NCBI GenBank assembly: GCA_965649765.1
Contig: OZ287748.1
Location: 34,596,001-34,660,000 of the forward strand
From: Bispira polyomma
Lineage: Eukaryota
Length of the DNA stretch: 64,000 nucleotides
Direction of reading: 5' to 3'
Shown: piece by piece, positions 22,355 through 56,780 of the stretch
Layout of the letters: every line of letters begins with the position of its first letter
Numbering within the stretch: the stretch's first letter is position 1
Program-made: the position numbers and the translations under genes
Notes under the pieces: generated by a model
What the model was told of the DNA's origin: nothing
What the model saw: the letters and a program-made list of their open reading frames with translations, nothing else
The model's database searches: none

Positions 22355-23121
22355 GGGGATGCTTTCTGGTCATATTTAAATAACTTTAATTAACAAAATT
22401 TAAAGTTAATAAACACAGACCAGTGGACAGTTATTTGATTAAATGCTTGGTGCCTTGTACCAGTAAATATGATTAGGCTTCTGCCTCAATTATTTACTGT
22501 CTACAGTATGGCATATATAGTTATATTATTTTTTTCTGTATAGATATTGAATGAAGATTGGAATAAGAATGACATCCAAGACGAAATAATTGGTTTATGT
22601 TATTGACAAATCTGCATGAAATGCCAAATAAGTAAACATTGTGGAACAAATAAATAAATTTAATCTTCTAGAACTTAACCTACACCTACAATTTCTTTTT
22701 ACAGTCAACTTGTTGACAGATAAGACAGGGATTGTTGTAGTAAAAAAAAAGTAAACAATATCATAAAATAAATGAAAATATTTGTATTTTTTCCTGATGC
22801 CATTGAATATCTATGTAGTTATTCTTATGTTGTGAGGCTGAGTCCATTCTCCGTCTTTATGTGATAACCAGACACAAGCAGTGTGTGGGAGTGTGCTAAA
22901 GTCACAGTCTCCAGTAAAAAAGGAAATGAAATTAGGCCAACGAGAAATGTGCCATGACTGTAACTAACACTATGTTTGGTTTGTTTAGCTACAACAGTCC
23001 AAAAAGTATTCTGCTAAAATATATTTTTTACATAGCAACCATAATGCAGCAGATTTGGTTACATTGACAATACCTTTCAAGACAGATCTTTCCAACAAAC
23101 CAAAATATAATTGTATGTTAT
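22355..23121 (+). repeat. Segmental duplication block Y, copy 1
   Basis: Colinear with 26442-27277 (AGGGGATGCTTTCTG ... CAAAATATAATTG.ATGTTAT). Confidence 0.9.
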
Positions 23122-24508: not shown

Positions 24509-26167
24509 ATTGTCAACTCGACCCTTGCGGTTCTCGAGCATCCACCTCTGCTGTGACCAATATTTATGGAATTTTAGTGAACTAAATTTTTGCAATAGCT
24601 TGCACGATTCATGTGATGCATATTTACCACAAAGACGGCAAATTCTGCCATTTGCAATCTTGCTTGCATTCTACATGATTTCAACACCTTATAAAGACGA
24701 TCATGGGGCGATTATAGCCACCAGATTCTCAAAACGCCTAGGCATCTCTTTTAAGGATTGCAAAATTAAGAGGCTTACATATTAAAATCTTTCACTCCTT
24801 TGCGTTGGCAAATATGTATTACCACAAAAACTGTTTAACCTAAACTCTTGCTATATAGAAACACACATTTCATGATACATATCTATATATAATTTAAAAA
24901 TGTGAAGGTTAACAACATGTTCATCAGGTAATTATGTTTAAATATGTCAAAACTGACATAACTGGAAGTTTAGCCTCACTTTTCAGGTCTTTTGTAAAAT
25001 TAAAGCTACAAAAATACAGGTTTCCACATATAATGGAATAAAGATGTCATTTCATGAAATTTCTAATCTAGATAATGCAATGTGACCACATGTGATGGAT
25101 TATTTAAAAACAATACACGCCCACACAATGGTCTATGAATTCTGATATCTTCCGAATGAGCTATTTTTCTGACAATGGCACAACTATTGTTTGTTTTTAT
25201 GATAACTTTAATATCTTATTTACAGCAGCAGTCTTTCCTTGTGTTATTCCTTTACATCTAATGCTTTTTAACAATGATGAATACAGTGAATTATATTCAG
25301 TAAATAATATCTGTATTATACAATATAATAGAAATCATGCCTGCAAAATTAGTAATTTTTCTTGATGCTGAAAAACGAAGCTTGCATCATATTTTGTAAT
25401 TTGTTGTGAGTTTAAAAATAACTCTTTTCAAAGACAGTATACCTTTTCTTGATATATACATATATATTTATAGCTGTCCAGGGCTCTGAGTATATTAATA
25501 CAAAAGTAAACACTGTGATGGATTAAAATGGCCAATTTATTAAGCTGACAATATTAACACTGGTTGTATATACAAATAAAAGATATTTCAAATATACATA
25601 CAATATATACATGGGTTAACACTAATGAGTTACAAACATTAAAGTAAGTTATGTATGATGAATAATATGAAGCAAATAGGTGCATTTAATGTAACATCTG
25701 TTGCCCAGATGACTACTTAAAATGGCGTGTCCTCGGTCATTAGGTCCTTCGTCCAGTGGTATCCTAAAGATTCTTGAGGACGTTGATAAATGGTCATCAC
25801 CATGCTTCTCTCTTCAACTAAGGGAATGCTAGTAACGCATGATGGTTGACTGTTGGCAGTACAGAGTATAAACTTGAATACAAATACAAATATGCAGTAT
25901 GAAATGCGTCCTGTTTCATCAGTTTTTTTATATTTACAATGTTTGCAATGACGTATAGCTTAGAATTTAAAAATAGATTTTCATAAAATAAATCCTTACA
26001 TTTCATGTAAAAAATGTTCTATGCTTGTATTTGTGTAATATGCAACAAGCTATTAAAAGTGGACATTTTTACTGCACCGGGTGAATGATGGCTGTGATAA
26101 AAGGGGTGTAATTCCTACATGAAATCAACAAACACAGGCCGTTAAAGTTCTTATCAGTAGACTTAAT
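24509..26167 (+). repeat. Segmental duplication block X, copy 2
   Basis: Diverged direct copy of 15577-17135. Confidence 0.9.
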
Positions 26168-26441: not shown

Positions 26442-27277
26442 AGGGGATGCTTTCTGATCATATTTAAGAAACACAGCTTTAAAACTGTGATTAAAACCGT
26501 TTAATTGACAATGTTTGAAGTTACCAAACACAACACACACCAGTGGACAGTTATTTGATTAAAGGCTTGTAACAGTAAATATGATTAGGCTTCTGCTTAA
26601 ATTATTCACTGTCTACAGTATGGCATATATAGTCATATTAGTTTTTTTTCTGTATAGATATTGAATAAAGATTGGAATAAGAATGACATCCAAGACGAAG
26701 TAACTGTTTCAGGTTATTGACAAGTCCGCATGGAATGGCCAATAAGTCAATATTCTGGGACAAATAAATAAATTCAATATTCTAGAACTTAACTTGCTCC
26801 TACAATTTCTTCTTACAATCAACTTGTTGACAGATATGACATGGAGAAAATAATAATAATAAAAAAAAGAAGCAGATATTATAATGGGAATTAAATTATT
26901 TCTATTATTTCCTATTGCCATTGAATATCTATGTAGTTATACTTGAAGTTTTTCACATCTTACTTGTTGTAAGGCTGAGTCCGTTCATTGTCTTGATGTG
27001 ATAACCAGACATAGAGCAGTATGTGGGAGTGTGCTAAAGTCACAGTCTTCAGTAAAAAGGGAATGGAATTAGGACAACAAAAAATGTGCCATGACTGTAC
27101 CTAACACTATGTTTGTTTTGTATTATTCTTCTATCATTTAGGCCCCCAACAGTCTCAAATAGTATTCTGCTAAAATATATTTTTTATAAACTAACCAAAG
27201 TGCAGCAGATTTGGTTACATTTACAATACCTTTAAGGACCGATCTTGCCAACAACCCAAAATATAATTGGATGTTAT
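26442..27277 (+). repeat. Segmental duplication block Y, copy 2
   Basis: Diverged direct copy of 22355-23121, cut off by the MITE at 27278. Confidence 0.9.
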
Positions 27278-30229: not shown

Positions 30230-30787
30230 ACGGTCAGGGAAAGGCACCGATTATATGATTAAGCCATGGCTCAGGGAAACAGAATAACAGGGACACTACA
30301 CAGCACTTATGCCACGACTGGAGCTGCAAGATCTCCAGTGGTACCACAACTTCCCCAGGATGCCCCTTGACGTATTCCAAGAGATGGAAAGGAGGGTGGG
30401 GCAAAGGATACAGAGACACGCCACCTAGTACAGGAAGGCACTGCTCCCTGGACTCAAGATAGCCATCACTTTGAGGCATTTTGCTACTGGGGAGTCGTAC
30501 ACATCGCTGCAGTGGTCATTCGTAGTGGGCAGGTCAACCATAACCAGTTCATGCCAGAAGTTTGCCAGGCCATCATCAATGACTACCATCGATGACTAAG
30601 ATTGAGTCCATGTTCCAGAACACGTGTAACCTTCCCAATGCCCTGAGGGCCATCGATGGCAAACACATCGCCATGAGATGCAGAGGAAAGGTGGGAGCGA
30701 GCATTTTAACTACAAGGGGTACCATTCAGTTGTCATGCTTGCCCTGGTAGATGGGGATTACCGTTTCCTGTGGGTTGATATAGGTTC
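30230..30787 (+). pseudogene. PIF/Harbinger transposase, 5' half
   Basis: PGLKIAITLRHFATGESYTSLQWSF, AIDGKHI, FNYKGYHSVVMLALVDGDYRFLWVDIGS; continues at 43121. Confidence 0.92.
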
Positions 30788-31309
30788 CAGTTCCTCGGGG
30801 TGTGGGCAAATGATAGAAGATTAACCAACAACACATAGTGAGAAAAGATTGCGGTTAAATACTTTTATTATATATATGATTTCTACTGCTAACATATTTT
30901 TATATACAGTTTCTTTGTAGAATAGGTAATACTGTTGTGGGCATAAGGTCCCCTTAACTCAAGTGAGTTTAAGGCCTTAAGCTTACACAAAGCTTGGGTT
31001 AAGGTGACCTCAGGTATAATGAGTTTAAGAGTATAAGTATGCCAAAGTTGAGTTTGAGTCCAAACTTAAAGGATCTGAGTTTAAGGTTGAGAGTTTAAGT
31101 TTGGTAGAAATTTTAATTTAAGGGCAAACTTAAGCGATTAAACTTTAAATTTATGCTAGTCTAAAGTTTGACTTAGGGTTTTAAGTCGAACTGTAGAAAC
31201 TTGAGTACAATATGTACTAATCTAATGAAGGGGGGGACCTTATGCCCAAAAAAGGTATAATATTTAATGTTATTTAGACATATCTTAAGCCTAAAATTTT
31301 AAGTTAGAC
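30788..31309 (-). repeat. Split direct repeat B2 (522 bp)
   Basis: Matches 32405-32926 with about 5 substitutions counted by eye. Confidence 0.95.
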
Positions 31310-32249: not shown

Positions 32250-32404
32250 GGTATTTGAATTTTCCTAGTGCTCTGCTGACAAACGGTAAAAGGCGGGAGA
32301 ATTTGAAAGGGGAATGGCTTATATACCCGCCCATCCATCCCATAGTAGTGAACAGCCTGGTACCCCAGAACTGAGGCCGCCAACGCTGGGGGCGTTAGCT
32401 TTCA
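32250..32404 (-). repeat. Split direct repeat A2 (155 bp)
   Basis: Matches 42966-43120 with 2 substitutions; abuts B1 to form the CTTTCA|CAGTTCC junction. Confidence 0.95.
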
Positions 32405-32926
32405 CAGTTCCTCGGGGTGTGGGCAAATGATAGATGATTAACCAACAACACACAGTGAGAAAAGATTGCGGTTAAATACTTTTATTATATATATGATTTC
32501 TACTGCTAACATATTTTTATATACAGTTTCTTTGTAGAATAGGTAATACTGTTGTGGGCATAAGGCCCCCTTAACTCAAGTGAGTTTAAGGCCTTAAGCT
32601 TATACAAAGCTTGGGTTAAGGTGACCTCAGGTATAATGAGTTTAAGAGTATAAGTATGCCAAAGTTGAGTTTGAGTCCAAACTTAAAGGATCTGAGTTTA
32701 AGGTTGAGAGTTTAAGTTTGGTAGAAATTTTAATTTAAGGGCAAACTTAAGTGATTAAACTTTAAATTTATGCTAGTCTAAAGTTTGACTTAGGGTTTTA
32801 AGTCGAACTGTAGAAACTTGAGTACAATATGTACTAATCTAATGAAGGGGGGGACCTTATGCCCAAAAAAGGTATAATATTTAATGTTATTTAGACATAT
32901 CTTAAGCCTAAAATTTTAAGTTAGAC
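32405..32926 (-). repeat. Split direct repeat B1 (522 bp)
   Basis: Near-identical to 30788-31309. Confidence 0.95.
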
Positions 32927-32938
32927 ACCAAGCCCCAA

Positions 32939-33299
32939 ACTAGTAGGTGTTTTGTAGGACATTTTTAAAAGAATCTGCAACTTGAGTACCAGCATCAGCA
33001 GAGTCTGAGATGTAACATCACACGCAATCCGACGTCCAGGTGCCATGTTTTTGAATATCCTGAATCTTGACATTATTGTTAAACGCAAAGGTGGCACCTG
33101 AACGTCAGAAGGCGTGAAAGGTCAAGCCAGAGTATTGAGTACCAAGTGAGGATAGTACATTTTTGAGGTGTCTTCGCACACGTGTGTCCGTTAGTGGAAC
33201 CCACGAGCCTTGGAGTTTAAATTGAAATAATGAGAGATTTCTTCCTTTAGGTGAGATAACACAGCTTTCAAGGCCTGAATAGGACAAAGAGTTGAATTA
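32939..33299 (-). pseudogene. Outer element YR, C-terminal part
   Basis: NSTLCPIQAL..WVPLTDTRVRRHL..TFHAF*RSGATFAF..HGTWTSDCV*CYI; stop at a catalytic-motif Arg (CGA>TGA). Confidence 0.9.
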
Positions 33300-33957
33300 C
33301 AGTTCCCCGTGGGCCAAGGGAAAGTTGGTAATAGAAACCTTAATAATTTTCTAATTTCTTTAGCAACACAGAAAAACACTTGCGGGTAAATATTTATTAA
33401 TGACTAGCATGGTTAGTTCTACAGATATAGTATGTACAGTTTCAGATTATAGTTGGGGGGCATAAGGTCACCTTACAGTGAGTTAAAGTTTAAGGTGAAC
33501 GTAAAGTCAGTCTCAGTTTTTATATAACAATAAGGTTGACTTAAGGTCACCTTAACTAAAGAGCTTTGAGGGGGCCTAACGATGGCCCTAAATTGAGTTT
33601 AAGACTAGCAACCAATGTGTCAAGAGTATGCCAATGAAGGGGCACCGTTAGTGAGCCCGACTTAAATTTGAACTTAATTATGAACATACCTTGAGTTCAA
33701 GTCAGTATGGAAGTAAATGGGCCCGAACTGTTGGCCCTACCTTGAGTTTAAGGTTGATTTAAAGCATACTATGGAGGTTGCGAAGTGATTGGAAGATAAA
33801 TTATGTAAGAGTACATAATGTACCGAGATATAAGGTGACCTTATGCCCAAGGACAAGGGGGTTGTGAACTGTCCAAATTTATGTTTATTATACCACAACA
33901 TTTATATATTCTTTTTGCACAGGTGACCTATAGAAGTCAGACCACCAAACACCAGAG

Positions 33958-34944
33958 TTACCTAGAAGTAGGCTGAAGCGCACCCTTGAAGCAATCAGCG
34001 ACCTGGGACCCCGTCTGGGCCGAATCTGTAATGTACCTCCAGACGCAGTCCGACGTCCAGGTGCCATGCCGCTGAATGTCCTGTATGTTGACATTATTGT
34101 TAAAGGCAAACGTGGCACCTGAACGCCGGAACGCATGGAAAGTAAGGTTAGCATGACCACAGCTCAGGAGCTGCAGCACATTCTTCAAGTGACGCCGAAC
34201 CCTTGTGTCCGTCAACGGAACCCAAGCACCACCCAACTTATACTGAAAAAGAGGCATGTTAGGGCCACCAGGGGTAAGGGCCAGCACATTCTTCAGAGCA
34301 GCCACAGGACATAGGCATGAGTTCTGCAGGACTGGAATGTTTAACAGTTTAATTTGATTGTTCACCTGCATGGTCTTAGACCATTTTACTAAAAGAGTTA
34401 TGTACCCAGGCTTAAAAAGCACATCCCCTCTGGCCAAATGCTTCAATGGAGAGAACCCAGCCACAGAGTGTGGGCACAAATTGGAAAGCCTCAAGAAACT
34501 GAAAAAACTGGTCAGATAAACAGCCTTAAAGATCTGTCCCATATACGTGTTGTCGCATTTGGCAACCAATGCAGTTAACAAAGGAATATCAAACAATGTT
34601 TTAAGTTTGGCTTGTAAAGGCTTATTAATAGCAAGAGCCCTACTATAATAAGATATACGTGGATCTGCAAAGCAGTCCACATTTACATGAAAGAGAATGC
34701 ATTTCGCTTTAACAGCCGAAAGATGATTTGCAATTTGAGCAGCAGACATATGATTAAAAGTCAAAAACTCTAAAAAAGACAAAATCCTGAATACAGTCAC
34801 CTGATATAGAGGCCATTGCATGAAAGCTCCAAAGGCCAGGAAGAGTCTAAACATGGCATCATAGGCCCTGGCTGTTGATTCAGCAAAAGCAAAATGCAGT
34901 CTCTTGCAGGCTCTATTTGTGAACAGGGAGTCCAAAGGATGCAT
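33958..34944 (-). CDS. Tyrosine recombinase (intact) of copy 4
   Basis: 328 aa with catalytic R (FLRLSNL), K (KWSKT), HxxR (FHAFRR), HGTW and Y (WRYI). Confidence 0.93.
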   Translation of the reverse strand: MHPLDSLFTNRACKRLHFAFAESTARAYDAMFRLFLAFGAFMQWPLYQVTVFRILSFLEFLTFNHMSAAQIANHLSAVKAKCILFHVNVDCFADPRISYYSRALAINKPLQAKLKTLFDIPLLTALVAKCDNTYMGQIFKAVYLTSFFSFLRLSNLCPHSVAGFSPLKHLARGDVLFKPGYITLLVKWSKTMQVNNQIKLLNIPVLQNSCLCPVAALKNVLALTPGGPNMPLFQYKLGGAWVPLTDTRVRRHLKNVLQLLSCGHANLTFHAFRRSGATFAFNNNVNIQDIQRHGTWTSDCVWRYITDSAQTGSQVADCFKGALQPTSR

Positions 34945-34980
34945 TCCTGAAACATAGTACCACAGGAAGATACAACATCT

Positions 34981-37386
34981 TTAAATTGTGTAGTCAATGT
35001 CTAGGAGGGTGGCATCTGTGTGCAGCCAGTTAACCGACCCCACCCATTGAGCAAGTAAGTATTCATTATTATTCACTTTATCCCAACGTGAGAGAAGGTC
35101 TGCAACCTTGTTCTTCACACCCAAAATATGAATAACTCTTATGTCTATATCAAATTTGCTAGCCCACATGTAAATATTTCTGCTGTAGGCAGCCAGAACA
35201 GGATCTTGAGTATGCCCGGTTTCCATGACACTAACCACTGCCTGATTGTCACATTTAAAAATAACTTTTTTGCCTTGCCATACGTTGGACCATAGCTTGA
35301 GGGCAATGAGTATGTTGATAATTTCAAGCGAAGCTATATTGTCACTGGTCATGTGTGAGGGTACTTTAAGTTTGTACACGTCATTGCCACAGATGCCGCC
35401 CATACCGGTTAGACATGAATCTAATTCTACCTGTGCATGGGTACTCTTATGTGAAAAAAAAACACACGCCATTGAAATGCCTAATGAAGGTTCTAAACCA
35501 ATTTAAATCCCTGTTGAAGTCTTCAGTGACTATTAACCGACTTTTGCTATAATTGTCTCTGAGGAATTGCAACATACGGTTCAAAAAGACTCTAGCATAT
35601 TTAATGCATTTGGCCACATATAAGAGGGAGCCCAATAAGGACAATAATTCTTTTTTAGTACAAAATTCTTTCCCTTGCCACATTTCACACTTGTCTGTAA
35701 TTTCCTGCATTCTTCCGTCCGGGATAGAGGTGGTATAACTTTCAGTATCTATTAGTATGCCCAGGCATATTGCCCGTGTGCTGGGGGGAACCAACTTTTT
35801 CTGGCTGACCGTGAGGCCGAGCTCCTTGAGCAAGGCCTGAAGACGTTCGTAACTGGCTGTTATTTTACTTGGCAACGATACCGTCAAAAAATCGTCTATA
35901 TAGTTGTGTACTTTGTATCCCTCCGCCTTCATTATAAATCTTACAGCGTCAGAAAGACGCTGGAAAATAGTACTCCCATTCTGATACCCGAAGGGAAGAC
36001 ATTTATCGACGTAGAAGTCTTTCCATTTTAGGCCAAGTAGATTGATGTCACCTGGATCTATGGGAACGTGCCTAAAGGTCCAACTTACGTCAATTTTATA
36101 GATATGACATCCTCTATCCAATCTGGTTACTTCAGTAGTAATGTTATCAATGGAAGGATATGATAGAATAAAACCAGTGTCAAGGTAGGAGTTAGCAGAA
36201 GCACCTGCGTTAACCGAATGACCATGTGGCCAACCCAAATCGACTATTACTCTCCTATTAGCCAAGCTGGACTTCTCACGTGTCATCATCGGCGAACAAT
36301 GCAAGTCCCTAATAGGGGGCTCCTTGAAGGGCCCTAATATAGCCTCAAAGTTACATTCCTCATTCAGATACGTCTCCACATATTCTGGGAAAGTTTCCGC
36401 CGAACTATGGTTACAATTGTCCGACTGACTAACTTTTCCTCGACATACGTCTAAAGGGAAACCGTACTTAACGAGCAGGGGCAGTTGCCAGTCCCAATAC
36501 TTAGTGAGGTAATCTTGCCACTTCTTGGCATTTAATTGCGATTTGACCACAAGTTGGAGACCCTTATAATTGTGTCTGCCATCAACTCTTAATTTAGCAT
36601 GCATTTGGAAGGTATCTAGGCCATGATTTTTCGCCCCCCATCCCAAATTTTGCATCCTGACGTGTTAAGTGGAATGAATCCATAATCGACATCATTTTGC
36701 TCATGCCACGCCTTGTACGTCTCATCGTTCCGGGCTTTAGTTAGCAACTCCCGTTTATTGCATTTTTGCTTAAGCCCCAAAGCGTACTTGTCGGAAGGGG
36801 CAACTGAGTTATATGTTGGATTTGTGTTGACATTTCTGTCATTACCCTGATTCCCAGCATTGTCTTTAATCAATCGCCTTTTTTTCGCACCTTGCTGTGG
36901 CTTGTCATTAACACTCTCGTTTTTGTTGACACCATCCTCGACCTCCCCATTGTTGAGTTCAACAATGGTTTGGTAGAGGGGTTGGAATCTGTTATGCCAC
37001 AAGGCAGCTCGGTCGACACTATTATTCACTAGTGATTTATATGGGAGACATTCACTAACAGGCTTGGTACGTCCAAGCATTGTTTCCTTGGTGTATTTAC
37101 TTTGCCCCCGCCCACAGGTCTTTTGTTTGTTTTGCGTGGCCGGGACAGAGTAAACACGACACTTATTTACAGGTTAGCACACTTTGACACTTTTACTTTT
37201 ATTTACAACGACCTGTTTTCTTGTGCTATTCATATTTTGTAATGCGTCGCTGTATGAACAGCATGCACGTTTACCTTTATTGTAAGTGAGCATTTTACCC
37301 CTTACATCTTTATCAAATAACTCCAAATTACTAAATTCTGAGTTATAAAAAGTTCTTGAAAAAATTTTGTCTTTGCTATTTTCCAC
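34981..37386 (-). pseudogene. pol (RT + RNase H) of copy 4, several frameshifts
   Basis: ORFs 37174-37386, 36616-37080, 35447-36655 (LPFG, YIDD, CLGI) and 34981-35472 (DSC, E, CDN, NKVADLLSR). Confidence 0.92.
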
Positions 37387-37416
37387 TGCAGAATTGCAGT
37401 GGCCCCTTAGTTTTTT
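37383..37416 (-). promoter_or_regulatory. Putative -1 ribosomal frameshift signal, copy 4
   Basis: A_AAA_AAC, 7-nt spacer, stem CCACTGCA-attc-TGCAGTGG; the -1 frame runs into the pol ORF. Confidence 0.8.
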
Positions 37417-38431
37417 AGACTCTTCTTGCTACATGCACTGGATTTGTATGACCCCCCACAGGTTTCGCAAACATGTCTGAAGTAGGTATTCCCAGTTTTG
37501 TGACTATTGGGAAACTTGCACGTACCATCCTGAAAGAACTTGCAGTTCGCTGTGGACTGCTTACCTGAGGCCTGTGTTTTATTTGAACCATGAGTATTAC
37601 TACCAGAATTATTGCTAGCAATATGTCTCTGGGCATGAGCCCTTCTAAAACTATCAAGCTTCTCGACCTCTGACCATTTAACCTTCCCCATTTCCATGTG
37701 GGTGAGCACAACCGCATGGCAAGCTTTTGCCGACTCCCAAGAGAAATCCTCTGCATCTTCCATCAGATTAGCCATATAATCTAGTATCATTTCCCTAATC
37801 TCATTGGACTTTTCTTCCTGAATAATGCGCGTAAACCACATACCCATTGGTTGACTGATAAGTCATCATATGTGGGCCTTGATTTACAACTGCCCGTCAA
37901 GACATGGTTTTGGGGCCATCCTATGACGCATTTGACCAAAATATCAACGCCCCCTCCCCTTTGTGACTTTAGTTTACCTTGCTGTGGGTTTTCATTTAGC
38001 TGTTTTAACTCCGCCAGCCTTAATTCAACTTGGCTTTGAATTTGACTGTTGCTGCGTAAAAAGTCTATATTCGGAACTACAGTTTCAGTGGATAAAACTT
38101 CACTGGTATCGGTGCTCACAGAACTACTGTTAACAACAGAATTTGAAACAATACTAGCCTGATTCTTGTTGTGGACGTCCGCCGCCAGTGCTGCCTCTGT
38201 CTGCTGAACTCTCTGGTCCATCCGTTCCATCATCTGCGCCATGGACTGCAGTTGCAGTAAAATTTGACTAGAAACAATATCTGAACCTGAATTTGAAGCG
38301 AGAGTGGATGAATCCTCAGCAGAGACAGCACTAACAGTGGCTTCCACAGACACGGCTTCCAGAGTACAAGCATTGCCAACGGGCCTTTCATGCTTTTCTT
38401 GACACCTCGAACAATGATAAACCGGAGGCAT
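37407..38431 (-). pseudogene. gag-like ORF1 of copy 4 (one frameshift)
   Basis: N-terminal CxxCxxxHxxPxxxxC, coiled-coil-like segment, KSQRGG, WPQN, C-terminal Cys/His cluster. Confidence 0.88.
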
Positions 38432-38669
38432 TGTAAAGTTTAAAACTGATAAAATACACTAAAAGACTAAAAACAGAAAGAAAATCGGAAACATAAACTT
38501 GAATTTCCAAGATGTTCGTTCCAAAGTTGTTATTCTGTGAACACTATTGTTATAAATGGCGGGACGTTTGAATGAAGCTGCCTTATATACAGCCCGCAAG
38601 CAATGAAGCGTGAAGACTAAGACTGGTCCCCCAGAACTGAGAGCGCCAGAGCTGGGGCCCTGCCTTACA

Positions 38670-39292
38670 TTTATACTAGGGATGGTTAGCAAACAAACTG
38701 CATCATTTCTCTGCAGCGTCTTAGACCATTTAACCATTATGACTGCATACCCTGGCTTAAACAGAACATCCGCTCTAGCTAATTGCTTAAGAGGAGAGTA
38801 AGACCCCATTGAATGAGGACACAAATTGGATAAACGCAAGAAAGTAAAAAAAAAACTTATAATAAATAGCCTTAAAAATTTGGCCCATGTAAGTACTATC
38901 ACATTTACTAATGAGAGCCCTAAGCAAGTTTACATCAAAAATTGACTTCAATTTTGCTTGTAAAGGTCTATGCATGGCCAAGACTTTAGTGAAATAATAA
39001 ATTCTCTGATCAGAAAATACTTGAACATCTATATGACACATAACACATTTTGCCTTCACAGCCGAGATGTGATTTACTACCTTAGAGGCCGAAACACCAT
39101 TGAAATTTAGAAACTCTAAATATACTAGAATTTGCAACACAGTCACCTTGTGGGGAGACCAAGACATAAACGTTCCAAAAGCTAGGAACTGTCGGAACAT
39201 TCTGTCATATGCTTTATTAGTAGCAGAAGTGAGAGCTGAGTTCAGCCTATCACAAGCCCGTCTCATCAGAGCCAGACCCACAGGGTGAGTGC
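38670..39292 (-). pseudogene. Outer element YR, N-terminal part
   Basis: ORFs 38787-39281 and 38670-38902 (FLRLSNLCPHS, KWSKT), homologous to 33958-34944. Confidence 0.9.
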
Positions 39293-39317
39293 CTGGAAAA
39301 GAGAAAACTGTGACCTG

Positions 39318-41813
39318 CTATATAAGAGTATTCACATAGAGTAAATTTTCAGGGGCAGGAAGCCATTGAATTGGTCCAGCCAGTTGGTTCAATAATAGGT
39401 GGTTATTTTCTGTCTTGGCCCATCTGGAAAGTAAGTCAGCCACTTTGTTCTCTCTACCTACAATGTGGACTACAACAATTTCAATGTCAAACTTACTGGC
39501 TAACATGTATATGTTTCTGGTATAAGTGGCCAATATGGGGTCTCTAATACGGCCTGTCTGTAAGACACTGACTACTGCCTGATTGTCACATCTTACTAAA
39601 ATTCTCTGACCCTTCCATTTTTGGACCCATAACTTCATTGCTACCAAAATGTTCAACATTTCAAGAGAAGCTATATTATACTCTGTCATACTTGTAGGAA
39701 CTTTAATTTGGTATACTTGGTTTCCATAAATCCCCCCCATGCCTGTGAGGCAGGCATCCAATTGTATCTCGCCTGATATGGGTTCATGTAAGAAAAAGGA
39801 AACACCATTGAACTGCTCTGCAAAAGTTCTAAACCAATTTAAGTCACGTCTGAATGCATCACTTATTACAATTTTACTTTTACTGTGATTATCTCGTAGC
39901 AGTTCCAACATTCTATTCAAGAAAACCCGAGCTTACTTAACACATTTAGAGATATATAGCAAAAGGCCCAGTAAAGACTAATTCTCTTTTGGTACAATAA
40001 TTTTATGAAGCCCAATCCCTGCACTTGCTCTGAATTTCTGCCATTTTTCCGGAAGGGATAGAAGTTGTGCATTTGACTGTGTCGATTATTATGCCCAAGC
40101 ATACTACCTCAGTGCTGGGTGGAACCAATTTTTTTCTGACTAACTGTGAGACCTAGTTCAGCAAGTAATTCTTGCAGTCTTATAAATGTTTTCTGAATTT
40201 TGCTGGGAAGTGATACACATAAAAAATCGTTGATATAATTGTGGACGTTATGATTTTCGGAGTGCATTATGAAACGCACTGCATCCGAAATTCGTTGAAA
40301 AATAGTGCTGCCATTCAAATAACCGAATGGCAGCGATTTATCGACATAGTAAGATTTCCACTTCAGCCCTAAGAGGTCAATGTCGCCAGGGTCAATGGGG
40401 ACGAAACGCCCTACTCACGTCTATTTTAAATATCTGACACCCCTTACCCAATTTAGACACTTCAGTGGTGAGATGATCAATGGAAGGGTAAGACAGTAAA
40501 AAATCGACACCCAGATACGAAGTCGACAAAGCCCCTGCATTTACGGAAGCCCCTTGAGGCCAACTCAAATCCACAATCACAAGTCGGTTGATCGAGTTGG
40601 GTTTATGTTGGGTCATTAAGCGGGCGCAATGCAAATTCTGAATTGGTGGAGTGTCGAAAGGACCAAGCATTGCCCCAAAGCCACATTCTTCCTTCATATA
40701 GGCGTCTACATGTTGAGGAAATTCCTCTGCTGACTTATGGTTATTGTCATTCGACTCAGTGTGAATTTTTCGACACACATCAAGAGGGAATCTGTATTTT
40801 ATAAGGAGAGGCAGTTGCCAATCCCAGTATGTTTGTAAATACTTTTCCCACGTTTCAGCTTTTAATTGAGAATGGACAGGAATCTGGAGGCCAGTATAAT
40901 TATGCCTGCCATCAAGACGTATTTTCTTGTGCATTTCTAACATGGATAGTTCGTGCCCTCCCCCACCATGGTCGGCAATCTCACCGCCCAAAGCCGAGAG
41001 AGGAATAAATCCATAAGCATGACTACTCTGGTCCTGCCATTTTTTGTGTGTTGGATTCGAGGCCGCCTTCTGCAGCAACTCCCTTTTATTTTTCTTGTGC
41101 TTTAAAGCACACGAATACTTATCAGAGATTTCAACATTTTCATTCACACGTTCTGCGCAAGTACTTGTCTCTTGGTGCTTTGCAAAGCCCCCATTGTTAC
41201 CCGGCGTGTTACTAGAGCGAACGGCCCTCACAATGACTGCATTGTCCTCCACAGGTATCTGTGCCAACGCGGAAAAACGATTGCTAAGCTGAAGGCCACA
41301 GTTAGCTTCATTGACGCGGCTCTTTTCGCCCCCCCTCTGAATTGATTTTCTAACATCTTTTGTCTCCACGCCCTGTTGCTTTGTGCATGGGGGTCGTTTC
41401 ACAATAGGTGTCACTTTGTTAACCACTTGAATGGAGGTGCCAATTACAGGTGTTAACTTTTCAAACCTTTGAATAGATGTGGCAGCAGAGGTGTTAACAT
41501 TATTCTTGAGTTCATCTCTGCCAACCTTTTGTGGTTGGCAAAATCTGCCCTTTGTCACCTTTCCAGAGCTGAACCTGTCAACCCCACCCTTATGGCTCCG
41601 ACTTTCTGTATGTTCAGTACTATATACAAACATTGATTTCCTGGTACTAGCAGTACTTTTTAAAGCATCACTATAACTAACATCAGGCCTTTTGACCTTC
41701 ATATAGCTACACATTTTCTGATACACATTTTTTCCCAACAAATGAAAATCTTTAAAACCTGTGCTGTAGACAGTTCTATTTACAACCTTAAAATTTTTCA
41801 CCTTTTTAACCAC
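39318..41813 (-). pseudogene. pol (RT + RNase H) of copy 3, frameshifted
   Basis: IDVSRAFR, YIND (mutated YIDD), QLDACLTGMG, RCDNQ, NKVADLLSR. Confidence 0.92.
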
Positions 41814-41843
41814 TGCATCAGAGCAGTGGCCCCTCAGTTTTTT
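41810..41843 (-). promoter_or_regulatory. Putative -1 ribosomal frameshift signal, copy 3
   Basis: A_AAA_AAC, 7-nt spacer, stem CCACTGC-tctgat-GCAGTGG; the -1 frame is continuous with the 473-aa pol ORF. Confidence 0.8.
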
Positions 41844-42879
41844 GCCTCTTTTTTGTTACATATACTGGTCTTATGACTACCCCCACAAGTCTCACAACCA
41901 TGCCTATACATCTGCCACCCTGTGTTGTGTGAACTAGAGAACTTGCAAGTCCCTTCCTGGAAGAACCTGCAAGGTGTCGACTTTTTCAGACTAGTTTTAC
42001 TGCTGCCAATGCTAACAGCACAGCCATTCGCCCCATGCATAGATCTCGACACACCTACATGACGTTGGGCGTGTGCCCTGCGAATCCGGTCGACCTTCTC
42101 GACATCCAACCACCCGAGCTTGTCCATTTCCATATTGGTCAGGACTACCGCGTGGCAGACCTTCGCCGCCTCCACGAAAAGTCTTGGGCGTCCTCCATGA
42201 GGCCACTCATATAATCTAGCATAGCGTTCTTAATTTCAGTTGACTTCTCCTCCTGAGCGATCCGGGTGAAGCCACAAACCCATTGTACAAGGGTTAGGTC
42301 ATTATAACTAGGGCGAGTCTTCGAGCTGCCCGTCAGCACATAATTCTGGGGCCATTCGACCGCCTTCTTTACAATAACCTCGTTTCTCCCAGTTCTCTGA
42401 GACTTAATTTTACCTGAGGGGTTTTCATTAAGAGACCGAAGTTCCTTTAACCTCTGTTCGACTTGCAACTGAATGTGAGCGTTCTGATTCAAGAATTCGA
42501 TACTCGGAACGACAGTATCTGGGCCAGTAGGTGGGCCTTTACCTTCGTCAGCAGAGACTAGCTCTTTAGAAACACTAGGAGTAATGCTAGAAGGAACGGT
42601 ACTTGCCTTACTACTGGTGAGGTTGGCTGCTAACGCTGCCTCTGTCTGCTGGACTCGTTGATCCATCCTCTCGACCACCTGACTAAGTGATTGTAACTGC
42701 TGTAGTATAGCACTAGATACGGCCTCGTTCGGATGAACCAGCGAGTCCTCATGAGAGCCAGCGTCAACCCCCACTCCCTCACCTGAGATATCAAGCATAT
42801 TAACCGAACATTTTCTTCCAACCGGTCTCTCATGCTTTTGCAAACATTTAGGACAAAACACAGTCTTTTTACCTGGCAT
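41834..42879 (-). pseudogene. gag-like ORF1 of copy 3 (one frameshift)
   Basis: CPKCLQKHERPVGRKC, KSQR, WPQN, C-terminal CRFFQEGTC..H..HGCETCGGSH. Confidence 0.88.
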
Positions 42880-42965: not shown

Positions 42966-43120
42966 GGTATTTGAATTTTCCTAGTGCTCTGCTGACAAAC
43001 GGTAAAAGGCGGGAGAATTTGAAAGGGGGATGGCTTATATACCCGCCCATCCATCCCATAGTAGTGAACAGCCTGGTACCCCAGAACTGAGGCCGCCAAC
43101 GCTGGGGGCATTAGCTTTCA
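42966..43120 (-). repeat. Split direct repeat A1 with candidate TATA box (TATATAA, 43041-43035)
   Basis: Matches 32250-32404; TATATAAG also at the same place in copy 4 (about 38582-38589). Confidence 0.9.
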
Positions 43121-48900: not shown

Positions 48901-51900
48901 TATTCTGGCAGATCACAGTCTTCTTCACACCTATATCTATCAAAGACGGTTACGAGAAAGCAAATAACATTTTAGTTGTGTCCTTTTCAATTTCCGGGTG
49001 TGCTATTCCCGAATTTGGGCTAACTGCAAAATGGACTGTTTCAGGTTACCAGTCTCAGCGTTGCTATGGTTTCTTCTTTGTAGTAAACAAATCAGAGTTC
49101 ACGTAGCACTTTCTCGATGTGTAAGAGATGAAAATGGATATATTTGACAAATATTGTGTATGCAGGCGATGCTGTGAGATCTGGGGAGAGTTCTCACTGT
49201 GATGACGGATTAGAAATGAAGAAGGTTTACGACTACTGATAGCAGAATCCCTGTATATAAGATGGGGTAAGTCCTGGTTTTTCTACGTCTTCCGAGTTTG
49301 GATACTAAAAGAGATGTTGGGAGGACGATCCTGTTACCGACTACAGTAGCTTGTCAAATTCAGCACGACGAGATATCTGAATTTGACAGTGTTTCTAGCC
49401 GAAATAGATATATTTGGGTGGCGTTAGATGTCTAGTACTCTCATTTTCTGCTCTCGAGTTCAAAGATTCGTCTGATTCAACGGATTTGTTTTGAAGAATC
49501 ACCAGTACATGAGTGATAATAGGTGGTGCTAAGGCCGACCTTTATAGCCTTATTTTGTCCATTTTGCAGACATTTGGGAGCTCTATGAGGTGGAATCAGT
49601 TCTCTCACAAATTTATTTGAATACTAACATAACCGGATTATTATCCATACTTAGGTACATGGGTGGCTTAAGGGCCTACTTTCATATCCTAATGAATTTG
49701 GAGTTGCAGAGATTCATTTCATCTTCATTTTTAATCGTTGAATTTTTGGGAAGAGTTCTACATCATATATCGCAACTCGCAGATTTAGACTTGTCAATTC
49801 ATATTCAGAGGTATTTCAAAAGATACAGGAACTGAATTACTCAGAAGATTGTAATCTACAGGCTACATGGGTGGTGCTTGGCGCTGATTTTCATGTGTTT
49901 ATTTTTGTGATTCATCCGTGAATGTGAAGTCTCCCACAATTATATCATATTTTTTATGTCCATGGACTGGCTGTTGCTTATATAAGGTCAGAAATTGATG
50001 TCACATACTGAATCGAATTTCTAGACTGTCATTTCCTTTTGAAGCAGGATCTTTTGTGACTGTATAGTATATAAGCAGACTGTAGTTCAGATCACAATAA
50101 AAAAATTTATGTCCTTAATACGGGGTCATGTTTAGTTCAATAAATGCAGTATTTTTGGAAGTTTACCTATGGGAATCCAAAATGAAATCAAGCAAAACAA
50201 TTTCAGAATATCTCTAGGAGATGCATGTTGATTTAAATTGAATGTCGATAATCATACAAATCTATGCTCTTAACATAGAGGCATTAAGCTGTTTCTGGAT
50301 CATTATGCTTTTGTTATAGTGTCAGTTGATATAGTGTCTTAGTCATAAGATGGTGAGGCAAAGAATTTATGACCATTGCTGAGTATGCAAGGTAGACCCA
50401 GTGGGGGTACTGAGATCAGTGCTCGCCTTAAATATTCTTGTTAAGTCTATTCTGGTTGGAATGACCTTAATTGCTGATTGGATAGCAGTTGGCCTAATTC
50501 TCACCTTTTTTCCCGCTAAAACTCCAATAACCTCACTTTAAATTTAGAATTTGGAAGGGCACAACGCCATTTTAAATATCTTTCAATTCTAGTCAAGAAA
50601 ATTTTATTTTTTATTACTTGCTTTTATGTTACATTTTACACAGTTTTTGTACTTAACCGAGTGCTTACATATGTTCTAGACAAAGGATGGTTGCAGTGTG
50701 GAATATATAAACTGAACTTGCTGGCTCCTGTGGATGTGTTATTAGTCAATGCTTTGACATATGCGAATTTTGCTCTTTCTGGGCTACAGTTGAGGGCTGT
50801 TCTTATTGTTATTTGAAATTTATCATATTTATTTCTCGAAATCACAAACAACCTCCACCTTTAATTCGCATGTTACAAAGCACTGCTTGCTCTATATTTA
50901 CAGAATGGCACCTTGTGCAAATCATGATTGTCGTGCTTGCAAGACAAGTCACAAAAAACCCATAAACGATAACTGTCCGTTTATTAATCAGTCTGAAGAC
51001 AATGACACTAATGACACTTCTACTACACCTATTAATGCACGTATTTTAGAAGAACTAAAAGGGTTAAGTGGAAGAATGTCAGCCATGGAGAAACGGGTAG
51101 AGCAATCCGAAAATAGACAATTTGTTGCTAGCTCTACAGTAAGCCCTATAAATGTTGCCCCATGTGGAATTCCCGCACTAGCTGCAATTGCTCTACAGAC
51201 TGCTCCCACATTGATGCTGCCTACGGCCACCCAGACGGCTCCTACTGTACCTGTGACCACAGACGACACACTAGTTCCTTCCCTGGCTACTCTTAAGACA
51301 TCCGAGTACCTCCAGAATGCTGTAGATTCCAGACTGCAGGACTTAGCCAGCCTCAACGAAAAAGGTAATGTCAAATCTCAGAGAGGGGGCCAGAAACGGG
51401 GTGGGTAAAACCCCAGGTCCCCTGGCCACAGAACAATATTTTAGGAGGTACAACTAAGTCAAGAACCACATATGATAGTTTATCGATGGCTCAGTGGGTC
51501 GCAGGATTTTGCTCTATTGTTCGGGATGAAAATAACATTGAGACAAAAAATGCAATGTTAGATTATGTAAAAGACTTAATGGAGGACTGCAATGATTTCT
51601 CTTGGGTGGCTGCCAAAGGGAGTCATGCGGTACTTCTATGTCGTATGGAAGAGGGCAAAGTTACCTGGGAAGAAATGGCCAAAATAGACCGAATCAGAAG
51701 GGCGCATGCAAAAAGAGTGGTAAACAATACGGTTTCTTTCTCTCAATACAGTAGGACTAGACAGCAAAGTAATGAAAAGGGAATACCTTGCAGGTATTTT
51801 CAAAAGGGTTCGTGCCCACAAAGAACGGATCATGAAACAAAGGGTCAGATGTACTTACACATTTGCTCTACTTGTTTCACCATTGGGAAGTCTTATCCCC

Positions 51901-51952
51901 ATGCCTCTATGGATTGCCACAGAAATAAAGTGAAAAGTGACCAGAATGTCGC

Positions 51953-51986
51953 AAAAAACGAGTAAGGCACTGCAGTACAGCAGTGC
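51953..51986 (+). promoter_or_regulatory. Putative -1 ribosomal frameshift signal, copy 5
   Basis: A_AAA_AAC, 7-nt spacer, stem GCACTGC-agtaca-GCAGTGC. Confidence 0.78.
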
Positions 51987-52915
51987 ACAAATGTAAAAAA
52001 CTGAATACTGATCATGAATTTGTATATATAAGAGATCAAAAGAAATATTGTAATACTAGAACTGTATATAATGTAAATCACCAAGCTGTGTGTAGTGACA
52101 ACTGGAGGGCAGATTGAGCTAGATTCATTAATAAATCTTATGCACAAGTCGTGGCTCAAAATACAGGTAGAGTAAATAATAATCAAAACATACATCAGAA
52201 TCCCACCTCCAATTGTCACACACCCGCGAAATGTCAAATGTACAGTGATGTATGTCCTAGTAATGTCAGTAGTTACAGGAATTCAAGGCAACAGGTAGAA
52301 AGGGTGAAAGTTGGCACCTCTCAAGGTGTGAAACCTCTCATTCAAAAAACCCCCCTCTCCACTCTTACACCCAGGGGCCAAAGCCCCCCCTCTTATAAAG
52401 GTAGGACAGAAGGTGTCACAAAAATGTCACACAAATCAGGTGATAAAGTGGGTTGCCAAAATAATCAATTACACTGTCAAAACAGATTTGCACCTCTTCA
52501 CAATTTGAGCATTGATAACAAATACAAATTCTTGTAGTCAAAGTAGTCCAGCTGCACAGCCGGGTGATAAATATGCTCTGCAACTCCAGGTAAAAACGAA
52601 ACACAGAGATGCTGTGTCACTGGCACAAGATAAGAAATTGTTCAAAGCCTGGAATAGGCAAAATAAGGAAAAATTTGGGTTTATCCCCTTGGGGGATGCA
52701 AAATTGCCTAAAGAGGTTAAGGCTCGACCACACTTAGTCGACCCCCTACTAGGGGAAAAACTACTAGAACGTTACTGGGATTGCCAGTTAATACATCTGA
52801 TCAAATTTGGGTTTCCCCTAGATTTTGATAGGACTTGCCCCCTAGAGAATAAAGGGGAAAATTAAGTTGTCCTCAGGGTCGAGCAGTAAATTCAGCAATA
52901 CAAAAAGACCAATAT

Positions 52916-54118
52916 TTGGGTACTCCTTTTATTCTCACCCTTCCTACAGTTGACGACATTACTAAAAATGTGATTAAACTGGGAAAAGGTGTGCTGTTAT
53001 ACAAACTAGACATTAGTCGGGCATTTAGACAAGTCAAAATTGATCTGGCAGATTATGATTTATTAGGTTTACAATTAAATAATTACTACATAGACACTTG
53101 CTTGCCATTTGGATATCGGCACGGAAGCGCAATCTTCCAGCATCTCAGTGACGCCATAAGGTTTATTATGACGTCACATGGTCATGACGTCATCAACTAT
53201 ATTGATGACGTGATAGGATATGGACTACCGGATTCAATTTCCCAGTCATTTGAACTATTAAAAGACACGTTTCACAAGTTAGGCTTTGCCATAAGTGAAA
53301 AGAAGATGGTAGCCCCCAGTACAAAAGTAATATGCCTAGGCGTACTAGTCGATACAGAGAATTTCACAGTGTCAATCCCAGATAACAAATTAGATAAAAT
53401 TAAGCAAATATGTAAAAGTTGGAAAGACAAAAAAGTCTGTAATAAACGGCAGCTACAATCACTATTAGGCTCTCTCTTATGTGTGTCAAAATGCGTTAGA
53501 ACCTCCAGGGTATATCTGAACCGAATGTTAGATACTCTCAGAAGGGCCAGAGATGCCAACAGCATTAAACTAGATATTGCCTTTCAACAGGATTTGAACT
53601 GGTTTGATACATTTCTTACGACCTTTAACGGGGTCGCCTTTTTCGACCATAAACCTGTCACTGATGAAGTACATTTAGATGCCTGTCTGCAAGGTTTAGG
53701 CGCTTGTTGCAATAATGAAATATACACTGAACAGATACCATTGGGTTACAATAATTATACCATTGTCCATTTGGAAATGTTAAACATATTGGTTGCCATA
53801 AGAGTCTGGAAAAATCACTGGTCGGAAAGAAAATTACTAATTCATTGTGATAATCAGGCTGTGGTTTCAATTTTAAACTCAGGTAAAACCTATGACTTCA
53901 CTTTGGCCGCAATAACTAGAAATATTTTCATGGAGGCGACCCAGGTTGACATTGTACTAAGAACAGTCCACATTTTGGGAAAAATGAACAATACCGCGGA
54001 TCTACTATCTAGATGGACAATTACACCCAATAATGTTGACAAACTAAGCGAATTAGTAAAAAACCCCACATGGCTTCAGGTCAAAGATGACCTGCTACAG
54101 ATAAATTGGGCTATCTAG
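52916..54118 (+). CDS. RT-RNase H open segment of copy 5
   Basis: 400 aa uninterrupted: LDISRAFR, LPFG, YIDD, DAC, CDN, ADLLSR. Confidence 0.88.
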   Translation: MGTPFILTLPTVDDITKNVIKLGKGVLLYKLDISRAFRQVKIDLADYDLLGLQLNNYYIDTCLPFGYRHGSAIFQHLSDAIRFIMTSHGHDVINYIDDVIGYGLPDSISQSFELLKDTFHKLGFAISEKKMVAPSTKVICLGVLVDTENFTVSIPDNKLDKIKQICKSWKDKKVCNKRQLQSLLGSLLCVSKCVRTSRVYLNRMLDTLRRARDANSIKLDIAFQQDLNWFDTFLTTFNGVAFFDHKPVTDEVHLDACLQGLGACCNNEIYTEQIPLGYNNYTIVHLEMLNILVAIRVWKNHWSERKLLIHCDNQAVVSILNSGKTYDFTLAAITRNIFMEATQVDIVLRTVHILGKMNNTADLLSRWTITPNNVDKLSELVKNPTWLQVKDDLLQINWAI

Positions 54119-55949
54119 ATGTATTTTTCAGGTTCTTCTACCTGGGTGAACAGGCTAGCTGACAGGGCGGCCAATCGAGCTCATCAAGCATTCCGACCAG
54201 CTACTCAAAAAGCTTACTCTTCCATGTTGCTTTCCTTCTTGGAAGTGCTAGTTGTCAATAATACTTCTCAGACATCAGTAGCTAACTACCTATCTGCCAT
54301 TAAGGCTCAAATGTCACTTTTTGGCCTCCAAGTGGGTGCCTTTTCTGATCAAAGAATTAAATATTTTCAAAAAGCTTTAATATTACAAAGGCCTTTCAGG
54401 GCAAAGATAAATGGGATAATAGATATTGATCTGCTGGAAAAAAATAGCAAAAACGTGCTACTCAATGTTTATGGGTCAAATTTATAAAGCTGCTTACCTT
54501 CTGGCTTTTCTTTCTTAAGAATTTCCAACCTAGTCCCACATTCCATGTCTACATACTCACCTCTTCACGAGTTAGCCAGGGCTGACATCATCTTCGCCCC
54601 TCCTTGTGCTCATATTATCATAAAATGGACTAAAACCCTACAATCTAGAAATACGATTAAAGTCCTTAAAATTCCATCTTTGCAGAATATTGCTATCTGC
54701 CGTGTTATGGCTCTAAAAGCCCTACTTACCATTACACCTGGCAGCAAAAACTCCCCCTTATTTCAAGTCAAAAATAATGCTACCTGGGTTCCACTAACTG
54801 ATTCTAAAATTCGTTCAAACCTAAAAAACATTTTGGCCAGGTTAGGTAAATCGGAATCCAATATTACGTTTCACACATTTCGCCGCTCTGGCGCCACATT
54901 GGCATTCAATGCCCATGTTCCCCTAAAAGACATTCAGAGCCAGGGCATTTGGTCCTTTGAGTGCATTTGGAGATACATTACACAAGATCACACGGCATCT
55001 GACCAAGTAGCCCTCCTCCTTCAGTCTCTGCTCAACTCAACCCCTACCTCCTAGTTGGGCCTTGGTGGTTATTGTCTTATCTAATTAAAATTTACAACTT
55101 TTAACTTTACCTTTTGCTAAACTACTCAAGACCACCTTATAGTCAAAACTTTATGGTAACATCAAAGAGAAATGTAAGGCTAAGGCCAGTCTTAAATTAT
55201 GTAATATAAAATGTTAAGGTTACCTTAAATTCATTAATAATAAAATCAATATTCTTAATTTACGTTCACCTTAAACCAAGTCTAACTCAAGCCACACTTA
55301 ATGTGACTTAGACTATGGTCATCGTTATCTCACTAAGGTGGTTTTATTTAATTGAAAACTATTTTATCAATTCATATATATGTGTAGAAGTAGGTAAATA
55401 TATATAATCCCAACTGTTGTCTTATTTGAGGTCAAACTCCAACTCAAGGTCAGGGCACTGCTATATTGCAATTGCAGATAGGTTGGTAACTGCTGCTTTG
55501 GACATGTCTGAATCTCATGAACTGAATTAGTCATCTGGGTTTCCAGATTCATTTCTACCAGTAATCATTCGAGCCGTTTCATCTGCTCTGGTTGGTTCAT
55601 TTGCTGGAGTTATTTTTGTTGGTGTCATACGAGATCTGGAACATATTATCTAGATAGATCTGACAAGAGTTCACAGGGTCTATTTCATCTTTATATATAC
55701 AGTCATATGCTAATGAGCTGTTTGTTAATGCTAATGAGCTGTCATTTTCCATCCTCTTCTTATCAGGTATAGAGGTGAAGAGTTTTTAGTTGAGGAGATT
55801 ATTCCATCTGGAGGACTATTTCTTTGCATGATGGCTACAGTTCAGTACCTTGCCCGTTAAGTGGGTGAGAGATTGATTCTCGATCAGGTTTTCATGCTCT
55901 ACATGTTTAGTACTTTTAGTACTTGTATTGAGGAATGCTCTAATTACCA

Positions 55950-56780
55950 TGTCTGAGTAATTACTTGCTGGTTCAAAAGAAATGTCTAGTCAAGGCAATT
56001 TATCCTTGAAACACAGCATTATTTACAGGGAGTGAAGTAGGCTGCTGGTTTAATACTTACTGGCACATAAGTAACTGTTAAGTGAAGTACCTTTCTTTAT
56101 CCTTAAAAACAGCACAATGTATATGAAGTGAAGTGGGCGGTTAGTTGAATTCTTACTGGTGTGCAAAACTGTCCAGTGAAGTAATTCTCTTTATCCTTAA
56201 GATTCAGCACTACTTAAATGGTTTTGAGTAGGCTGTTGGTTAAATATTTACTGTTTTGTCAGTAACTGTCTAGTTGAAGTAACTTTCTTTATCCTTGAAA
56301 TACAGCATCAGTTACACAAAGTAAAGTGGTTTGCTGGTTGAATACTTACTGGTCTATACAACTGTCCAGTAAAGTTATTCTTTTTATACTTAAATAGCAG
56401 GTCTACTTATATGATGCTGAGTAGGCATAGTTGAATACTGACTGGTTCTTAAGAAATTGTTCAGTGAAGTATTTTTCGGTTACCTTAAGGTACAGCATCA
56501 CTTATCTTATAATTAAGGGAGTTGCTGATTGATTCCCTTTTGGTGCCAAGACATTGATCAGTGAACTAATTTTCTTCTTATTTTTACTACAATTCGTCTT
56601 TCATTATCTGAGTGGTCTGTTTAGTTTAACATTTTTTGGGACATAAGGAATTGTTCAGTGAAGTGACCTTATTGATCTTGGCAGGACAGCATTACTTATA
56701 CCAAAGTGAAGTAGTCTGTTGGTTGTATACTTCCTGGTTTTATTAGAAATTGTCCAGTGAAGTAATTGCCTTTATACTAC
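55950..56780 (+). repeat. About 95-97-bp tandem array (8-9 diverged units) inside the DIRS relic
   Basis: TATCCTT..ACAGCA..AGTAGGCTG..AATACTTACTGG..TGTCCAGTGAAGTA recurs at 56001, 56098, 56192, 56290, 56385, 56480 and further. Confidence 0.85.

Follow-up and report, generated by a model that had tools for sequence, protein, structure and literature searches.

A probable −1 frameshift signal at the gag-pol junction of Ngaro-like tyrosine recombinase retrotransposons

Tyrosine recombinase (YR) retrotransposons carry start-less reverse transcriptase (RT) and recombinase frames, whose route of expression has apparently been untested so far. The locus described here raises this question directly: on the minus strand near 41.8 kb of the window (the whole 64,000-nucleotide stretch of DNA that was analysed), a gag-like frame is followed by a pol frame that has no separate start codon where it meets gag. 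How, then, could Pol be made? An earlier note on this DNA had proposed that a programmed −1 ribosomal frameshift links the two frames.

The junction belongs to an element extending from 43120 to 30785 and bounded by split direct repeats A1, B1, A2 and B2; a second element is nested in its YR gene and a third lies on the plus strand (Table 1). The window holds at least six Ngaro-like copies or fragments, including those at 9.3-11.2, 17.4-20.0, 50.9-55.1 and 61.3-63.0 kb. Ngaro elements are defined, in the accessible text of PMC8547959 and PMC9210276, by split direct repeats in the arrangement A1-ORFs-B1A2B2 and by gag-like, RT/RNase H and YR ORFs. This ORF order was found here, and the repeats A1...B1A2B2 were found in the outer element as well as in copies L115, L116 and L120-L122 of the sister clade described below; A2 and B2 are not adjacent but lie 680-940 nt apart where B2 is in view. 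Pfam searches returned RVT_1 and RVT_3 over the cut-off and Phage_integrase under it, and gave no match to a methyltransferase domain in the element. The YR motifs HAFR and WRY (HxxR and the catalytic Tyr) are present in 33958-34980, pol ends ~35-40 residues past the RNase H motif ADLLSR, and neither an SGNH ORF nor a protease or DDE integrase was detected in the elements. Membership of the DIRS1-like superfamily was rejected, the end repeats being direct only, with no methyltransferase and no inverted terminal repeats with an internal complementary region. PAT elements likewise have split repeats. For this reason, and because the label fits the repeats, ORF order and domains rather than a placement of the RT among named references, we call the elements Ngaro-like. 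The Gag structure prediction (pLDDT 50.9, pTM 0.22) was too poor for a fold search, and the designation 'Gag' thus rests on position and Cys/His motifs.

Table 1. Coordinates of the retrotransposon features in the window.
Feature	Position	Strand	Remark
Repeat A1, outer element	42966-43120	-	98.7% to 32250-32404
gag-like ORF1, outer element	41834-42879	-	N-terminal Cys/His motif and C-terminal Cys/His knuckles; frame disrupted near 42175
Candidate phase-1 splice donor GT in gag, outer element	42412-42413	-	
Slippery heptamer A_AAA_AAC, outer element	41837-41843	-	gag phase, gag stop immediately next
Hairpin CCACTGC-6 nt-GCAGTGG, outer element	41810-41829	-	7 nt past heptamer; fold reaches 9 bp
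pol (linker, RT, RNase H), outer element	39318-41843	-	-1 to gag; broken downstream
Candidate phase-1 splice acceptor AG before YR, outer element	39293-39294	-	
YR 5' part, outer element	38678-39293	-	split by inner element
YR 3' part, outer element	32946-33257	-	
Repeat B1, outer element	32401-32926	-	98.9% to 30785-31309
Repeat A2, outer element	32250-32404	-	
Repeat B2, outer element	30785-31309	-	
Inner element, nested in outer YR gene	33296-38669	-	gag and pol frames broken
gag, inner element	37407-38431	-	
Candidate splice donor GT, inner element	37976-37977	-	
Slippery heptamer, inner element	37410-37416	-	
Hairpin, inner element	37383-37402	-	8 bp
pol, inner element	34981-37416	-	
Candidate splice acceptor AG, inner element	34947-34948	-	
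YR, inner element	33958-34947	-	
Plus-strand element	50905-55054	+	frames broken
gag, plus-strand element	50905-51965	+	
Candidate splice donor GT, plus-strand element	51365-51366	+	
Slippery heptamer, plus-strand element	51953-51959	+	
Hairpin GCACTGC-6 nt-GCAGTGC, plus-strand element	51967-51986	+	G-C basal pair clade
pol, plus-strand element	51953-54118	+	
Candidate splice acceptor AG, plus-strand element	54130-54131	+	
YR, plus-strand element	54132-55054	+	
Related copy	9268-11188	-	gag end and junction deleted; without signal
5'-truncated pol-YR copy	17404-19992	-	nearer the sister clade with UAG (readthrough type); gag not detected

Inspection of the junctions confirmed that the three sites named by the earlier note exist where it placed them, at 41810-41843 (-), 37383-37416 (-) and 51953-51986 (+). 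In all three, A_AAA_AAC lies in phase with the C-terminal frame of gag, whose stop comes right behind the heptamer (after AKN or LKN) or one codon on (after AKNE). The −1 frames across the heptamers read KKLRGHCSDAVVKK, KKLRGHCNSAVENS and KKRVRHCSTAVHK, as claimed. A pattern derived from the three sites matched the window three times and shuffled windows 0 times in 100. The stems of 7-8 bp with loops TCTGAT, ATTC and AGTACA also folded as predicted; the z-scores of 67-nt folds are modest (−2.40, −1.58 and −1.09), so folding by itself is weak evidence for a signal. The pol ORF at 41.8 kb, given earlier as 473 aa, had to be corrected to an open −1 frame of 483 codons counted from the heptamer (ORF 40392-41855). 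Gag and pol frames are disrupted elsewhere in all three copies, and thus none of them is an intact element.

The arrangement is conserved far beyond the window. In the 1.04-Gb genome, the heptamer-spacer-hairpin pattern yielded 1,114 matches (control 0) and the hairpin alone 1,308 sites (control 45), that is, about 85% of the hairpins have the heptamer upstream, with slightly different loop ranges in the two counts. To avoid circularity, copies were also selected by Gag similarity, blind to the signal; 140 loci were obtained, from which 12 lacking an anchor and 14 duplicates were removed, leaving 114. The heptamer is in phase in 100 of these (reachable from gag in 93, behind a UAA in 7), out of phase in 5 and absent from 9, as compared to a chance expectation of 0.005 per window for copies that are related and not independent (105 rows form 29 groups at 85% Gag identity). 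A full stem follows the reachable heptamer in 67 of the 93 copies, a damaged stem in 17 and another structure in 9. All 29 copies whose −1 frame is open for 400 codons or as far as the locus extends possess the heptamer, comprising 26 with a reachable heptamer, 2 with it behind UAA and 1 in-frame fusion. Short-read contigs of other families stack on the 34-nt island only (depth peak 1470-1513, loose ends at 1473 and 1507).

The position of the pol frame relative to gag provided further evidence. Counted from the heptamer, pol comprises 826-869 codons in L101 and L105 and 840-845 codons in L094-L097, and upstream of the heptamer the −1 frame is shut by a stop within few codons in most copies. 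The first ATG of pol wanders between codon 3 and codon 154. In the segment before this ATG, majority stops in three families number 0 in the pol frame versus 6/15, 2/14 and 1/6 in the other frames, and the shared changes in this segment (13 synonymous at 122 sites, 16 nonsynonymous at 508 sites) give a ratio near 0.3. Being open and apparently selected ahead of a wandering ATG, the pol frame is unlikely to depend on internal initiation. This agrees with the earlier observation that neither of two pol ORFs begins with ATG and marks pol as a downstream ORF in −1 that has no conserved start of its own. Two single copies, L091 and L216, are natural in-frame gag-pol fusions, showing that the gag and pol frames are contiguous.

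To characterise the stem, 22 gag-selected representatives, which had been filtered on part of the 5' arm, were compared together with the three window copies. The basal pair is G-C in 13, C-G in 11 and G-U in one of the 25 sequences; given this pre-filter, five of the inner pairs are invariant and the sixth is disrupted in one copy. Covariation beat its shuffle control (0 of 500), using a statistic that ignores kinship. However, a quick tree from which several families had been filtered out and a FastTree tree of 149 columns both split the C-G and G-C copies into two clades, so that the basal-pair swap is one event. Thus, the covariation claimed earlier was overstated: the C-G/G-C swap is real, but it reflects the separation of two clades, and no covariation is seen in the six inner pairs. 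These six pairs are identical in 28 of 28 hairpin-type groups, synonymous and wobble-tolerated positions included, a count that the pre-filter makes partly circular. Spacer, loop and flanks vary among the same groups. The constancy of the inner stem exceeds the needs of a plain hairpin, the predicted energy of which is a modest −11 to −18 kcal/mol.

Better support than covariation comes from two families that retain the same heptamer with unrelated stems. In one (5 copies), a 9-bp GC-rich hairpin follows 8 nt downstream, with an A-C mismatch in three copies; in the other (L181, L182, L199, L200), two overlapping stems of ~9 bp begin 8 nt downstream and could represent a pseudoknot, a switch or alternative folds. 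The spacer measures 7 nt in the main type and 8 nt in both of these families, within the 5-9 nt that the accessible part of PMC5009743 specifies between the heptamer and the 3' structure of a frameshift signal. A pseudoknot between loop and downstream bases, which the earlier note had raised, did not rise above chance among 21 representatives (best pairing 4.62 versus 4.49 in shuffles), and Rfam gave no match in 4 loci.

A separate route is indicated for YR. A phase-1 AG/GT at an invariant Gly codon of gag was found in 40 of 41 rows from both clades, and most rows show an acceptor of the TTNCAG type near the pol stop, in phase 1 relative to YR, as judged by eye. At the level of signals, the splice that had been suggested to join the N-terminal part of Gag to YR is therefore supported, and the candidate splice, whose signals both clades share, would yield a Gag(N)-YR protein.

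Homologues of Gag outside this genome were examined at the protein level. Among 72 proteins, with a best identity of 34-63% to the loci here, 42 reach the last knuckle; 32 of these end in KN or KNx, where ~8% would be expected, 5 carry KN followed by 2-12 residues and 5 show neither. Of 148 more distant proteins, 75 have the knuckle (KN or KNx end in 25, KN with a short tail in 11, neither in 39). Nine outside proteins appear to have out-of-frame ends, as their last residues can be back-translated to the same stem. Two metagenome scans and one viral-contig pattern scan gave no match that would supply DNA context, so the cross-species evidence consists of protein. None of 12 outside proteins of the UAG-clade type ends in KN or KNx. 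A Gag ending in KN could serve as a cheap marker of the frameshift signal in other genomes.

Taken together, the signal-blind tally, the stops upstream in the −1 frame, the selected pol frame ahead of ATG, the unrelated stems at the same heptamer and the outside Gags ending in KN argue that a Ngaro-like YR retrotransposon here carries a signal for programmed −1 ribosomal frameshifting, a reading to which we assign a probability of about 0.85. Most ribosomes would read AAA AAC and terminate, giving Gag. A minority would be held up when the hairpin reaches the mRNA entry channel, whereupon tRNA-Lys and tRNA-Asn would slip one base back on A_AAA_AAC; translation of ~840 codons of linker, RT and RNase H would then deliver Gag-Pol at a set low ratio. 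YR would be made from spliced RNA in which the first 150-215 codons of gag are joined to the YR frame. Slippage, the part played by the hairpin and the use of the splice are what we infer from the frames, from the arrangement of the sequence and from its conservation, all of which are observed directly.

A search with an RT fragment from 19 kb led to a sister clade that has the same repeats and ORF order, yet its gag and pol share one frame. From 70 loci (L111-L180), 6 without anchor and 12 duplicates were removed, leaving 52; one young family accounts for 30 of the 70 loci, and the distinct contexts number 26. Gag ends in UAG-G in 51 of the 52 copies (for example at L120:2113-2115), and beyond the UAG the frame is open for 240 codons or to the locus end in 39; full copies have 886-1015 pol codons. 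The CACTGC/GCAGTG stem is absent from all 70 loci, and an in-phase heptamer of any kind occurs in 1 of 52 copies. Folding of 80-nt windows, a procedure blind to pseudoknots and long-range pairs, revealed no conserved hairpin or shared fold after the UAG. A nucleotide motif, CRA CNA CYA G, is kept at +13 to +22 after the UAG. Identity between the clades amounts to 25% for Gag, 39% for Pol and 33% for YR. Since gag and pol lie in one frame around UAG-G, stop-codon readthrough is the natural reading of this junction, which would independently place recoding at the end of gag.

One family does not conform to this scheme. T precedes seven A at 81 sites, a mixture of in-frame stops and indels, and in one family a UAA stands two codons ahead of AAA AAC in 10 of 11 copies; comparable in-frame stops are also present in other lineages. 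Loci with UAA before the heptamer are L005, L214, L217, L237 and L239, and also L215, L218, L221, L228, L007, L030 and L022. An assembly error was considered as the cause but found no support: a short-read contig covering the site agrees with the assembly apart from one other letter, and among the rows listed there is no difference at the UAA. Pol of five copies of this family has 22 synonymous versus 6 nonsynonymous shared changes (with one copy poorly aligned) and thus looks selected, which the plain frameshift model leaves unexplained. Either pol is made here by a second route, perhaps by slippage in the P site when the stop is reached or by reading through the stop and then shifting, or the family may be mobilised in trans and have gained its pol variants by recombination.

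Pol of this family, selected despite a gag stop before the heptamer, also speaks for an alternative in which pol is generally made separately, by initiation at an internal ATG or from a transcript that has been spliced or has slipped, with heptamer and stem being by-products of Lys/Asn-rich gag ends and of an HCxxAV peptide. In keeping with such a peptide, the stem encodes H, C, A and V in the −1 frame of every hairpin-type group. However, its codons are invariant even at synonymous sites, and other families combine different peptides with the same heptamer. A spliced origin is hardly suggested by the spacers, some of which lack AG and which show no pyrimidine tract by eye, and the first ATG is not conserved in a frame that is open and selected ahead of it. 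We therefore regard separate production of pol as improbable. A site of action in DNA appears even less plausible. Tyrosine recombinases act on inverted repeats that enclose a core of 6-8 bp, the perfect 7-bp arms here flank a 6-nt core, and the element encodes a YR. However, the site is located mid-element instead of at the repeats, the heptamer sits on one fixed side of ~85% of the sites, and the inverted repeat is missing from the UAG clade despite its related YR and is substituted in two families. That it serves the element's own recombinase is thus very hard to maintain.

A further possibility would add to the −1 frameshift rather than replace it: the frameshift may be real and the invariant CACTGC/GCAGTG stem may in addition be read by sequence, being bound by Gag or by a protein of the host or acting as a packaging or dimerisation signal, and might tune the shift or a bypass of the UAA. 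The identity of the inner six pairs in every hairpin-type group amid varying surroundings, partly circular as it is, would fit such a role, as would the same stem putatively back-translated from protein ends elsewhere. However, two families and the whole UAG clade do without this stem, and the joint need for pairing and for an acceptable Pol sequence already slows change. We consider the additional role conceivable, though doubtful.

The preferred reading, −1 frameshifting at the gag-pol junction, has clear counterparts. In HTLV-1/2 and BLV, gag-pro is linked by A AAA AAC, a spacer of 6-7 nt and a structure usually regarded as a simple stem-loop, according to the available portions of PMC12789967 and PMC3835772; heptamer and spacing at our sites match these, in line with the earlier comparison to retroviral signals. 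However, deltaretroviruses and MMTV place the signal at gag-pro, whereas here gag is joined to linker-RT-RNase H in a YR retrotransposon, and the MMTV stimulator is a pseudoknot as compared to the predicted hairpin of the main type. Among animal LTR retroelements, 28 of 51 have pol in −1, many with classical heptamers, as reported in the accessible part of PMC5009743, which does not mention DIRS, Ngaro or tyrosine recombinase; LTR retrotransposons share the −1 position of pol but carry a DDE integrase and LTRs. The sister clade resembles MLV and FeLV, for which the text available of PMC12789967 describes UAG readthrough at gag-pol, in having a single UAG followed by G with gag and pol in one frame. 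The gammaretrovirus type uses a pseudoknot ~8 nt past the stop, whereas the sister clade gave no shared structure in folds blind to pseudoknots and conserves a stretch of primary sequence from +13 to +22.

The idea of frameshifting in Ngaro has been put forward before: as quoted in the accessible text of PMC13003380, Poulter and Butler (2015) proposed it for the overlap from RT/RH to YR, whereas the signals found here suggest that recoding occurs at gag-pol and that YR is reached by a splice. Our literature search found no gag-pol frameshift or readthrough signal described for elements of the DIRS order, although Poulter and Butler (2015) may describe one; its scope included the available parts of PMC8547959, PMC6681497, PMC3783388, PMC3266345 and PMC13003380 and likewise of 10.1101/2022.06.16.496473, PMC9210276 and PMC7192593. 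The mechanism is therefore a known one, here with a well-delimited signal and in a class of elements for which our search found no such signal described. On balance, we lean slightly towards a broader view, in which a single start codon would serve a full retrovirus-style expression program in Ngaro-like elements. The split in recoding known from retroviruses would have been repeated in them: within one genome, some lineages would use −1 frameshifting, for which at least three unrelated stimulators exist, and their sisters UAG readthrough, with switches between the two and a common splice for the recombinase, and the UAA family may use a second route to pol. The genome supplies reporter-ready signals of 34 nt for recoding at gag-pol, together with splice signals for YR, and the three stimulators, the readthrough clade and the family with a stop before the heptamer form a natural series for studying how recoding signals are replaced. 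The contrast between a slip signal and a conserved stop in sister clades suggests how little-studied YR elements make their enzymes.

Several minor observations were made along the way. In the 3' repeats of seven copies from both clades (L092, L095, L100, L105, L115, L120 and L121), the bases before repeat A2 end in ACTG in 6 of the 7, and CC(C)ACC comes directly after A2; these flanks possibly mark the recombination junction and a priming signal. Elsewhere in the window, an unbroken 393-aa ORF at 1849-3030 (-) looks like a rhodopsin-class GPCR, which we presume it to be, and 11979-12557 (+) and 21122-22300 (+) are presumably fragments of LINE reverse transcriptase C-termini, which they resemble. 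A 45-nt tandem repeat lies within a gag copy at 10763-10897 and a diverged array with units of ~96 nt at 55999-56664, and two longer duplications (15826-17099 versus 24849-26140; 22439-23121 versus 26551-27277) show 81-93% identity.
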